Part shown: one piece after another, positions 3,167 through 32,337 of the stretch | Numbering within the stretch: position 1 is the first letter of the stretch | Layout of the letters: each line of letters begins with the position of its first letter | Source: a virus | Lineage: Duplodnaviria; Caudoviricetes | Strand: one strand, 5' to 3' | DNA: 32,337 bases | IMG/VR virus record: IMGVR_UViG_3300036778_000071 | Location: 1 to 32,337 of that record | Position numbers and translations under genes: made by a program | The notes under the pieces: generated by a model | Told to the model about the DNA's origin: nothing | Database searches by the model: none | Seen by the model: only the letters and a program-made list of their open reading frames with translations

Positions 3167-3267
3167 ATGCCCCGACGCGACGCGCAACCCTAGTGCACAT
3201 GCATTCGGGCGATTGGGGCAAGGCAATCGTCGGGGGGGCAAATCATTTGCGGGGGGCGGATCGATCG

Positions 3268-6151: not shown

Positions 6152-6424
6152 ATGAATGAGGAAGAAATCCTCCGAGTTGGCGACGCGCCTTCGGCCGAAC
6201 ATCGGGTCACCGAGTTGCATGGCTGGATTTGCATTCACAGGAACGGCGGCGAGGGCCTGATGGCAACCGGCGTCGTGATGGAAGGGCACGGCATCATCTC
6301 GATGGAGCCGTTGCTGCGCACCAATCTTGGACTTGCCGAACAGCTTGGCGAACAGGCGCGCGCGATGGCGAAACTCTGCGGCGGACAGGCGGTCATGCGG
6401 ACCTTCAAGGTGGTCATGCATTGA
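6152..6424 (+). CDS. Hypothetical protein (90 aa)
   Basis: ORF in the rightward chain; TGATG overlap with the next gene. Confidence 0.7.
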   Translation: MNEEEILRVGDAPSAEHRVTELHGWICIHRNGGEGLMATGVVMEGHGIISMEPLLRTNLGLAEQLGEQARAMAKLCGGQAVMRTFKVVMH

Positions 6425-25552: not shown

Positions 25553-25810
25553 ATGGCCCCCCGTAAATTGTTTGGCAGTTTGAACCTCGAAGGCAACATC
25601 GGCCGAGGCGAAAACCCCAATGGCATGGTGACGCAGACCGCAAACGGCACGTTCATCAACGGCACCGGCGCGGACGGGCAGAGCGATTACGGCGCGGGCG
25701 TTTGGCCGCCGGGGGCCGATGGGCGGTGGAACAAGATCGCCGGGGAGCCGGACGGGCGGATGCCGGAACTGGGTGTCAAACGGCCCCAAACGTCGAGGCT
25801 GCGTCGATGA
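25553..25810 (+). CDS. Hypothetical protein (85 aa)
   Basis: AAGGAG RBS. Its 3' end overlaps the CRISPR-repeat-like element. Confidence 0.6.
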   Translation: MAPRKLFGSLNLEGNIGRGENPNGMVTQTANGTFINGTGADGQSDYGAGVWPPGADGRWNKIAGEPDGRMPELGVKRPQTSRLRR

Positions 25811-25834
25811 ACGCTTCAATGAGGCCGCCCGTCC
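25750..25834 (-). CRISPR. Split type I-G (I-U) CRISPR-repeat-like unit: half repeat, 48 nt, half repeat (not an array)
   Basis: Minus strand GGACGGGCGGCCTCATTGAAGC-[48 nt]-GGCATCCGCCCGTCC. CGGCCTCATTGAAGC matches the type I-G repeat 3' end as I recall it. Confidence 0.4.
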
Positions 25835-25886
25835 AACGCGACCATTCCGTTTCTTCTGCGGAAAGTCAAGCGACGGAGGCGGGCCG

Positions 25887-26219
25887 ATGATCCAAAACAT
25901 GCTGAACGCGCCCCGCACGCCCGACGACTGGCAGATTTTCAGCCTGTCGCATGCGCGCTCGCACCAGGAAATCCGGCAAGCGATCCAGGCACAGTTTGGC
26001 GTGGCGTTGGGCGATTACGTCCTGGACCCGATCAACTTCGAAGCCGTCAACGAATGGCTGGAACGGGTGCAGCAGACCCATACCGAGATGAACGGGGTGC
26101 TTGGCCTGCAAAGCAACGATCTGGAATGGGCCGATCTGAAGGATGAGCGCCAGCTCAGCGCTTGGATTTACCTGAACTGGCAAGAGGACAACGCCGCGCG
26201 AGTGAGGTTGGGAATATGA
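25887..26219 (+). CDS. Hypothetical tail-module protein (110 aa, His/Trp conserved-looking)
   Basis: GGAGG RBS, ATG at 25887. Confidence 0.75.
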   Translation: MIQNMLNAPRTPDDWQIFSLSHARSHQEIRQAIQAQFGVALGDYVLDPINFEAVNEWLERVQQTHTEMNGVLGLQSNDLEWADLKDERQLSAWIYLNWQEDNAARVRLGI

Positions 26220-26602
26220 GCGATACAATGAGCCGCGCCATGACGGGCGGGCCGGGCGGCGGCCAGCCGCAGCCGGAGCAGCCACAGCCGGGGCAGGGCG
26301 GCCAGCCGCCCGGCGGGGCGGGTCTGACCGGGCCGCAGGCGGGCGCGCATTTCCAGCAATACCTGATGCAGACGTATCAGCAGGTGCAGAACGTCCTTCA
26401 AACCATTCGCGGGGTGCCCGGCGTCGATCAGCAGAAAGTCCAGCAGGGGGCGCAGATGATGGGCCAGGGCTGGATGCTCGTTGCGGACGCGATCAAGCAG
26501 GCCAAGGTCGGCCAGGGCGGCGGCGCACCGGGCGGCGAGGCGCCGGGAGGGGCACCGGGCGGCGGGCCGGGAATGCCGCCGGGAGGGGCGCCGCCGGGAT
26601 GA
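26216..26602 (+). CDS. Gly/Pro/Gln-rich hypothetical protein
   Basis: ATGA overlaps at both ends. Confidence 0.65.
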   Translation: MSDTMSRAMTGGPGGGQPQPEQPQPGQGGQPPGGAGLTGPQAGAHFQQYLMQTYQQVQNVLQTIRGVPGVDQQKVQQGAQMMGQGWMLVADAIKQAKVGQGGGAPGGEAPGGAPGGGPGMPPGGAPPG

Positions 26603-27681
26603 GCCTGCCCTTTCTGGTCCTGGGCTTGCCGAGATCGCGAACCGTGTGGTTGTCGCGGTTTTTGTCGTTTCGGCCGTATGCCTGCTACCACGACCAGGCG
26701 CCCTACATCCGCGGCGTCGAGGACGTCCGCGCCTGGCTGTCGCAGCCCTATACCGGGACCGCGGAGACGGCCGCGGCGCCGTTCTGGCGGCTGGCGCGGT
26801 TTTTCCGCCCCGACCTGCGCATGGCCGTCGTGCGCCGGGACCCGGCCGACGTCATCGAAAGCCTGATGCGCTTCGGCTGTTTCGAGCGCGAGCGGCTGAC
26901 GCGCGTCATCGCCCGCTATGACCGCGCGCTTGATCGGGCGGAAACGGCCAGGGATTGTCTGTCCGTCCGCTTTGAGGACCTGACCCGCCGGGAGCCGTGC
27001 GAGCGGCTGTTTGAGCATTGCTTGGGCTTCCCAGCGCCCGATGGCTGGTGGGACCGGATCGCCCCGCAAAACCTCCAACGCGACCTCCAAGCGCAAATCA
27101 TTTACGCCCGTGCCCATGCCCGGCAGATGGACGCCGCTGCCAGGGAGTGTGCGCGAACGGTGCGGCATTATTGCCTGCCGACGCAGGCGAGCGTGCCGCC
27201 GGACGCCGATGGCGTGGTCATTCAGCAAGAGCGGTTCGCCGACTTCTTCCGGGACGCCAAGCCTTTGATGTCGGAACACTGCATCGCCGTGGGCGAGCCC
27301 GCGGACGAATACGAGCGGAAAAACCTGGAACTGTTTGAACGGCTCGATCGCGGCGGGAAACTGCTGATTATGACCGCCCGGCTCAATGGCCGGATGCTCG
27401 GCTACCTCGTCACCGCAATCGGCCCCTCGTTCGAACATGACGACGGCCGGCAGATGGCGACGCAACTCCCATTCCACGTCAGCCCGGACGCGGGCGGGCT
27501 TGGCCTGGGCATGCGGTTGCAGCGGGCGACGATCGCGCGGGCCAAGGAAAAGGGCGTGCGGCGGATGTATTGCCGCGCCGGTATCCGCGGCAACGGCGCC
27601 CGCATGGGGGTGGTGTATCGGCGCCTGGGCGGCAAGGAGTTCGGCCAACTTTACGAAATCGATTTGACGGAGGCGGCATAA
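26599..27681 (+). CDS. Sulfotransferase-like (P-loop) domain fused to a GNAT acetyltransferase
   Basis: N-terminal FLVLGLPRSRT.WL, VVRRDP.DVIES and VRFEDL. C-terminal GRMLGY, VSPDAGGLGLGMRL, AKEKGV and YRRLG. Confidence 0.75.
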   Translation: MSLPFLVLGLPRSRTVWLSRFLSFRPYACYHDQAPYIRGVEDVRAWLSQPYTGTAETAAAPFWRLARFFRPDLRMAVVRRDPADVIESLMRFGCFERERLTRVIARYDRALDRAETARDCLSVRFEDLTRREPCERLFEHCLGFPAPDGWWDRIAPQNLQRDLQAQIIYARAHARQMDAAARECARTVRHYCLPTQASVPPDADGVVIQQERFADFFRDAKPLMSEHCIAVGEPADEYERKNLELFERLDRGGKLLIMTARLNGRMLGYLVTAIGPSFEHDDGRQMATQLPFHVSPDAGGLGLGMRLQRATIARAKEKGVRRMYCRAGIRGNGARMGVVYRRLGGKEFGQLYEIDLTEAA

Positions 27682-31382: not shown

Positions 31383-32337
31383 ATGGCGGATGCTGATTTC
31401 TGGAAAAAGGGGTCAACCCCCATCGGTGATCCCGCCCCCGCAAATAACTTACCCCTGGCGGCGACCGACACGCCGACAAGCCCCACAGCAACCCCGGCAA
31501 AGAATTTCTGGGAAGTGGGCAGCGCGCCCGTAGCACCGGCCGGCGGTAGCATCCGGTCGATGACCGTGCAGCTCGATGCGCCGCCCGAGACGCCGCCGGC
31601 GCCGGTGACACCCGAACAGGAGCAAAAGACCCGTCAGGAGCGGGATCGCTTCGCCGATGTGCCGTCGAATATCCCGGTGCAGAAGGACTATTACGCAAAT
31701 TATTTACCCCCCCCGCCGATCTACGCTCCGCTGGTGCAGGCGGCGGCCGATCATTACAAAATCCCGTATGACGTCCTTGCCTGGGTAGGCGCGCACGAAA
31801 GCGGCTGGAACTCGGATGCGATGGGGATCGACACGTCCAGCGGCCGGGCCAAGGGGATGTTTCAGTTCAAGGACGCCACGGCGAAAATGCTGGGCATCGA
31901 TCCGATGGACCCAAGGCAGGCGATCGACGGAGGCGCCCGCTACCTGCGCCAGCTATTCGACAAAACCGGCGATTGGACCAAGGCCATCGAAGCCTACGGC
32001 ACGTTTTCCACGGGCCTGGGCAAGAGCCATGACGCGGAGGCCCGCAACGGATTCGACAAGTTCATGGGCGGCGTGACGGCGCGGCGCGACGCGGGCAACG
32101 TGTTCCCCGAGGAACAGCCGGGCCGTTATTACGGCACGCTGCCGTTTTCCGAGGATGAGGAAACCGGGAAAGTGACCTGGGGCCTGGAACAAAGCAGCGT
32201 CGGTCGTGCCCTGGCGCGCGGCATTCAGGGCTTCGAAAGCCGCCTGTCCGGGCCGCTGACCCCGGACAAGCTGCACGGGCTCAATGCCGACGAACAGACG
32301 GCGTTTCTCACCTTGGGCGGCATGCCTCAGCCCACGG
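31383..32337 (+). CDS. Large ejection protein with a lytic transglycosylase (SLT) domain, partial
   Basis: Manual translation from ATG 31383 gives HESGWN, AKGMFQF..AT, DP.Q.I.GGARYL and AIEAYG. Not in the ORF track, consistent with running off the right edge. Confidence 0.85.
   Translation, partial: MADADFWKKGSTPIGDPAPANNLPLAATDTPTSPTATPAKNFWEVGSAPVAPAGGSIRSMTVQLDAPPETPPAPVTPEQEQKTRQERDRFADVPSNIPVQKDYYANYLPPPPIYAPLVQAAADHYKIPYDVLAWVGAHESGWNSDAMGIDTSSGRAKGMFQFKDATAKMLGIDPMDPRQAIDGGARYLRQLFDKTGDWTKAIEAYGTFSTGLGKSHDAEARNGFDKFMGGVTARRDAGNVFPEEQPGRYYGTLPFSEDEETGKVTWGLEQSSVGRALARGIQGFESRLSGPLTPDKLHGLNADEQTAFLTLGGMPQPT

Follow-up and report, generated by a model that had tools for sequence, protein, structure and literature searches.

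A phage structural module carries a split type I-G CRISPR repeat unit whose spacer is the end of a conserved phage gene

Why would a phage carry, across the 3′ end of one of its own structural-module genes, the two separated halves of a type I-G CRISPR repeat? The window analysed here is the whole of a 32.3-kb virus record (32,337 nucleotides), with capsid, tail-like and lytic-domain genes on the (+) strand and, as a preliminary description of this DNA had stated, no cas genes among the ORFs scanned (39, 30 and 18 ORFs in three scans) on a contig that may be incomplete. The element is confirmed as real and comprises (i) a predicted promoter, (ii) the 3′ half of a type I-G repeat, (iii) a 49-nt spacer, and (iv) the 5′ half of the repeat (Table 1); both promoter boxes (TTGACT, 25868-25863; AATGGT, 25845-25840) and both repeat halves lie on the (-) strand where they had first been proposed. 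The joined halves, originally put at 36-37 nt, add up to 36 nt when the 4-nt lead is included. The spacer had been described as 48 nt of unique sequence; it measures 49 nt, because array repeats carry a 4-nt lead before CCG, and it is not unique, being the antisense of the last codons of a real gene. Two cautions attached to the original description hold good: the spacer exceeds the 34-43 nt measured for 498 array spacers, and the CDS that it overlaps at the 3′ end, gene A, is a real gene with 10 homologues.

Table 1. Positions of the split-repeat unit and its surroundings in the window
Feature	Position	Strand	Remarks
Predicted sigma70-type promoter	25840..25868	-	TTGACT, 17 nt, AATGGT; predicted start near 25834
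3′ half of type I-G repeat	25813..25834	-	10-nt stem arm, CCTC and 8-nt handle ATTGAAGC; 16-21/22 identical to 13 distinct array repeats
49-nt spacer, predicted guide	25764..25812	-	Positions 3-49 are the antisense of the last codons and stop of gene A
5′ half of repeat	25750..25763	-	4-nt lead and 10-nt arm, encoded opposite gene A codons 66-71
80-nt insert	25803..25882		Equivalently 25813-25892; not present in the contig of a related phage
Degenerate second copy of guide positions 1-26	25867..25895	-	Copy at 25892-25867; in-register TTG at 25895-25893
Gene A	25553..25810	+	85-aa conserved protein of the structural module; 10 homologues at 58-87%
Gene B	25887..26219	+	110-aa conserved neighbour; tblastn matches directly behind gene A in relatives

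The two ends of the unit were said to pair over 10 bp, and the predicted fold agrees, with 10 Watson-Crick pairs, CCG facing CGG at the base, and 13 pairs when G-U and one more pair are included (mean pair probability 0.97). The halves pair in the register of a true repeat, and the arm has no other stem-forming partner on either strand of the window, its own complement excepted; the folding energy by itself is unremarkable (z about -1.9). Published accounts are cited here from the parts of their text that were available. Type I-G systems use a TTN PAM and span 6 nt per Cas7, and Csb2 cuts 4 nt 3′ of the stem, leaving an 8-nt handle, and stays bound to the hairpin (PMC9638904). With its 10-bp stem, its CCG/CGG base and the 4 nt that separate this base from the 8-nt handle in the predicted fold, the unit matches the geometry of a Csb2 substrate. 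No Rfam family was found at the site, and no terminator 3′ of the unit.

The assignment to type I-G is borne out by arrays that share the repeat end and the CCGCCC/GGGCGG stem and that adjoin csb2, cas7g, cas8g1 and cas3g. The exact 21-nt 3′ half has no match in the viral and genome collections searched, and an 18-nt repeat pattern occurs at 65 genome loci, some of which are arrays whose 36-nt repeats share the stem base. Among the five arrays with scanned neighbours (L158, L188, L191, L140 and L171), L158 and L188 adjoin csb2 and cas7g, L158 also cas8g1 and cas3g, and L191 adjoins cas3g, while L140 and L171, with the repeats closest to the unit, adjoin cas4g/cas1g and type III genes. In alignment, the check first suggested for the repeat, the joined halves gave no exact host repeat match in the collections searched and are at best 29/36 identical to 13 distinct array repeats. 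Capsid searches indicated no phage host, and the 498 array spacers, compared with the window, reached a best match of 70% and gave no host link. As separate observations on these loci, the Opitutales genomes of L140 and L171 place I-G-type repeats beside cas4g/cas1g and type III modules, and on one Opitutales chromosome two widely separated sites (L159:10004 and L189:10004, (-) strand) each have a lone, degenerate I-G repeat end, preceded in both cases by the same sequence context.

The claim that the unit has its own antisense promoter stands as a prediction. Both boxes are present and the weighted score of the site is reached by 1.5% of random stretches, but the consensus scan called 0 sites, the -10 box matching at 3/6. 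Scores of at least 9 occur in 12/23 split units against 9% of random stretches.

The spacer is the conserved end of the phage's own gene, as the comparison with an insert-free relative makes plain: this relative lacks exactly 80 nt, and its three residue differences all lie in the codons of the 5′ half. The C-terminal V-x-R-P and the final R of gene A are common to the 10 homologues; gene A has no PHROG or Pfam family, and an Atlas look-up was uninformative. Among distant relatives, gene B directly follows gene A at four of the five metagenome loci with both matches and at 7/10 viral loci, the remaining three being spaced by 66, 242 and 246 nt. Searches of other kinds returned little: alignment confirmed no gene A relatives in viral contigs and gave one weak match for gene B, a degenerate pattern for the insert-free junction had 0 matches, blastn of the element against isolate phages gave only E=8 matches, and 40 capsid-related loci, 517,668 bases in all, hold no I-G motif.

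The insert-free allele was found in sequencing run X1, as a second contig about 89% alike that skips 25803-25882; the joint (25802-25883), for which a loose end is further evidence, occurs in one contig at depth 4.3. An assembly artefact as the source of the element was considered; one X1 contig spans the element without difference, but X1 may be the source of the window and is not independent of it. Between 25723 and 25810 the insert-free contig differs from the window at 11 positions, nine of them listed, 25804 deduced from the joint and one without a location. Six located differences are synonymous and four alter three residues (P66S, D67N and R69L), giving the state of protein P0002, which agrees with this contig at the peptide level. 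All three located residue changes in this stretch fall in arm codons. Three of the four nucleotide differences responsible lie inside the 10-bp arm, removing both basal C of CCG in the relative, and the fourth (25748), just outside the arm, weakens the pair beside the stem in the window, where the relative would pair better. By outgroup comparison, absence of the insert is ancestral; for the codon changes a direction is likely but weakly fixed by the outgroups, the segment being variable. Homologous genes that keep the peptide and lack the nucleotide motif had been named beforehand as evidence against the element. Such a homologue was found, yet it does not refute the element, since the motif sits in the 80-nt insert and the peptide differs exactly at the arm codons.

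The insert itself is made up of about 54 nt of new DNA, holding the 3′ half and the promoter, and a 26-nt duplication, with nothing else. The segment 25787-25812 recurs at 25867-25892 with 20/27 aligned columns identical, and the second copy has guide position 1 as its first base, directly after a TTG PAM, as one of three sites with 7/8 seed matches among 2894 TTN sites; on the (+) strand it provides the ribosome-binding site and start of gene B. The residual own copy matches the guide at 17/36 positions without gaps, and the insert parts the PAM from the protospacer, leaving the carrier's own site altered. A boundary placed exactly at the PAM would be the trace expected of an acquired spacer that recombined into its protospacer. 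From the codon pattern, a 37-nt spacer would need CCG in the near-invariant V75 region, and the 5′ half lies instead 12 nt further, in variable codons. In the insert-free relative, CTG and not TTN stands at the place of the PAM, and about 42/49 positions agree with the guide, with mismatches at positions 2, 9, 33, 39, 42 and 48 and one without a location; at positions 2 and 9 the guide agrees with neither known copy of the site.

Other phages show the same split layout. The 15-nt repeat end occurs at at least 126 viral loci and is by itself no evidence, because most of the viral matches listed carry no stem. After removal of array members, duplicates, locus-edge matches and eight matches with a hairpin of their own, 89 isolated viral matches remained; among the matches listed, 15 of these 89 have an in-register downstream stem of at least 9 bp, at a distance of 40-43 nt in 13 of the 15. 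Such a stem was found in none of 41 bacterial singleton matches and in none of the wrong-side controls. The arms differ from phage to phage with pairing kept. Outlying spacer lengths (23, 29, 30, 49, 50 and 66) lie about a multiple of 6 above or below 36-37, a periodicity that was tried and proved too weak to use. In some phages two or three split units are scattered over the genome and differ in arm and spacer (G013, L215; G011, L220-L221; G014, L216; G018, L226), two identical units being common to G011 and G018, and G009 holds two back-to-back, oppositely oriented units (L212, about 6170-6310) with homologous spacers (25/30, with wobble differences).

What the spacers of these units match bears on their possible use. 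Nineteen viral records with split or near-split matches were chosen (for G004, 20 of 191 kb only), and the spacers of 23 distinct units, the window's included, were compared without gaps with sequence within 1.5 kb (p ≤ 0.02 on 100 shuffles). A significant near-match was found for 11/23 units, one of them to a twin unit and therefore dropped, so that in 10/22 other units the spacer matches a diverged site of its own genome 68-620 nt away. The same 10 sites are the best matches within their fetched records, 7/10 have a TTN PAM against a background of 4.5%, and the mismatches lie mostly in one codon position. The 12/23 units without a significant match include that of the window (18/30, p 0.39), whose copy is short and contains gaps. 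The same pattern is reported for viral mini-arrays, whose spacers point at the corresponding site in related viruses while the copy in their own genome is changed (PMC6858448). Perfect protospacers in unit-free phages were found neither for the window's unit nor for two other units (matches in carriers only, or 0), and the best TTN sites of the guide reached 17/24 in 2.39 Mb of fetched loci, where no match to a cas promoter was seen, the host locus not being among them as far as known. In one unit of G011 (L220, 6904, (-) strand), a 30-nt spacer has its own site 179 nt away, with a TTC PAM, 25 consecutive matches, and differences at positions 1-3 and 29-30.

On balance, and with moderate confidence, the one-spacer split-repeat unit is best read as a guide that would aim a host type I-G Cascade-Cas3 at the insert-free gene A/gene B junction of related phages, the carrier being self-immune as the repeat end replaces the PAM. 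Starting from the observed sequence, insert, duplication boundary, changed arm codons and recurrence, this reading would have transcription begin at the 3′ half and the two ends of the RNA form the repeat stem, the guide between them becoming its loop. Csb2 would bind the stem and cut once, 4 nt beyond it, giving the 8-nt handle, the guide and a capped 3′ end, and Cas7g, once loaded, would coat the longer guide (37+12 nt) with two more subunits. Type I-E Cascade is reported to accept spacers extended by 12 nt with two more Cas7 and still to recruit Cas3 (PMC5009729); the literature search found no account of extended spacers in type I-G. Immunity of the carrier would follow from the insert, which separates the PAM from the protospacer: repeat sequence occupies the former place of the PAM, and the copy beside the TTG PAM has decayed. 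The unit would have originated when the spacer of a donor unit recombined into the protospacer belonging to it, after which codon changes would have rebuilt the 5′ half. The weak point of the proposal is the known relative, perhaps untargeted on account of the CTG at the place of the PAM and of the mismatches, including those at positions 2 and 9: possible accounts are escape by this relative, a third allele as the actual target, or a guide that is a decoy or has been disarmed. Moreover, the mRNA of gene A, fully complementary to the guide, could titrate it.

A bolder extension, tentative and rather doubtful, would make the unit an RNA-only homing element, in which 80 bases, promoter and half-repeat, turn a flanking gene into a guide and borrow the host I-G Cascade-Cas3 as endonuclease; empty alleles in co-infecting relatives would be destroyed, and repair by recombination would spread the element. 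Homing endonucleases target the empty allele at or near their own element, and their insertion breaks the recognition site. The geometry here is alike, with the empty allele as the putative target and its site broken by the insertion, and the known empty allele carries CTG; it differs in that no protein is involved, the nuclease would be the host Cas3, and conversion is only proposed.

Whether the RNA serves as decoy or guide had been left as an alternative in the preliminary description; the in-register TTG PAM and the PAM-flanked near-matches across the class now favour the guide over the decoy. A decoy, bound by Csb2 and Cas7g, would soak up Cas subunits with whatever sequence lay there as its spacer, a role that we consider unlikely. 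It would accommodate the over-long spacer and the mismatches and CTG flank of the known relative, selection on the stem is equally compatible with it, and viral crRNA-like RNAs are reported to compete for Cas proteins (10.1101/2024.10.29.618823). It needs, however, neither a TTG PAM aligned exactly to guide position 1 nor PAM-flanked recoded homologues across the class, and the location inside a structural operon also speaks against it. Less probable is that the locus records an escape or a disarmed relic, in which recombination with a spacer parted the PAM from the protospacer and protected the phage, the guide having since weakened to near neutrality. Host-array recombination is a proposed route to phage mini-arrays (PMC6858448, PMC7099407), and the divergence of positions 2 and 9 from both known site copies fits such a history, but a scar needs no promoter placed as in other units and no three amino-acid changes building a stem, and the 15-nt repeat end is intact.

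The guide is also complementary to the mRNA of gene A, and an action on RNA would exploit this, the antisense of a late mRNA either loading a type III effector that shares the repeat family or damping gene A by plain antisense. The type III genes beside the L140 and L171 arrays, which adjoin cas4g/cas1g as well, lend some colour to an idea that we rate as decidedly improbable, as does the expected pairing of the handle with mRNA of the carrier itself, by which type III systems usually recognise self. Against it, the other units match homologues in both coding orientations with TTN, which points to DNA targeting, and plain antisense needs neither handle nor stem. A chance meeting of a 15-mer with a GC-rich inverted repeat, scarcely credible, is already largely refuted: most listed viral 15-mer matches are indeed context-free and the folding z is only -1.9, but none of the 41 bacterial controls reached the in-register 10-bp stem, the motif fills a clean insert, and promoter, PAM and codon changes coincide.

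The proposed guide unit invites comparison with several known systems. Filing it with the solitary-repeat RNA anti-CRISPRs (Racrs), as proposed at the outset, is not sustained, given that no intact repeat is present and a spacer is. Racrs are single whole repeats, and the tool used to find them drops any match that has a partial repeat within 100 bp; neither 'I-G' nor 'I-U' appears in the main text of that account, as far as it was available (PMC10651486). The unit resembles Racrs in being phage-borne, with a promoter directly upstream, and in mimicking a host repeat (PMC10651486), and differs from them in consisting of two halves and a spacer instead of one whole repeat. With the mini-arrays of SPV1 and SPV2 it shares the absence of cas genes, a single spacer, a host-type repeat, and homology of the spacer to a nearby site whose own copy is mutated against self-targeting (PMC6858448, PMC11656645, PMC7099407). 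Unlike them, it has no intact repeat or leader, its stem joins the two ends of the RNA, its spacer is coding sequence, its 5′ half is written in codons and it lies inside its own protospacer. By this analogy the unit would work like a viral mini-array, yet in place of two whole host-identical repeats it has halves only, at best 29/36 identical to array repeats. The Cracr, CreR and CreA genes are likewise compact, crRNA-like phage genes that reprogramme host effectors (10.1101/2024.10.29.618823, PMC10120712, 10.1101/2023.03.10.532045); in the available parts of these accounts their guides, often in shortened form, match promoters of cas or toxin genes, whereas the guide of the window is long and matches the end of its own gene. 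In the available text of the CreR preprint, I-U elements are named only in Figure S7 (10.1101/2023.03.10.532045).

What appears new for the window's unit is its origin: with both the filled and the empty allele to compare, it seems to show a phage crRNA gene in the act of arising. Mini-array spacers target sites near themselves, a proximity called unexplained (PMC6858448). The present locus makes this open question of spacers pointing at neighbouring sites testable as spacer-protospacer recombination, perhaps spread by homing, which, if true, would account for the aim of viral mini-array spacers at sites beside themselves. The stem-building amino-acid changes suggest selection on the split fold, and one Csb2 cut is thus predicted to give a complete I-G crRNA from a gene of about 85 nt, a compact guide format; split units would escape repeat-based array finders. 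The literature search gave no account of the split I-G layout, of a coding spacer or of crRNA homing, with Faure et al. 2019 and the supplements (CreR Figure S7 and the Racr tables, which may list such units) outside its reach.

Several further features of the window deserve mention. A 360-aa protein within the structural module (26599-27681, (+) strand) combines a sulfotransferase-like N-terminal part with a GNAT acetyltransferase, and an ArdC-like anti-restriction gene (ArdcN and MPTase-PolyVal) lies at 1619-2518 on the (-) strand. In or near intergenic DNA are found a 28-nt inverted pair (82%) at 3235-3262 and 31428-31455, 28 kb apart, and a 35-nt direct pair at 208-242 and 1592-1626. Finally, protein P0013, a capsid protein 90% identical to that of the window, is encoded on a contig of 32,236 bp, 101 bp shorter than the window, which may be an insert-free sister genome.
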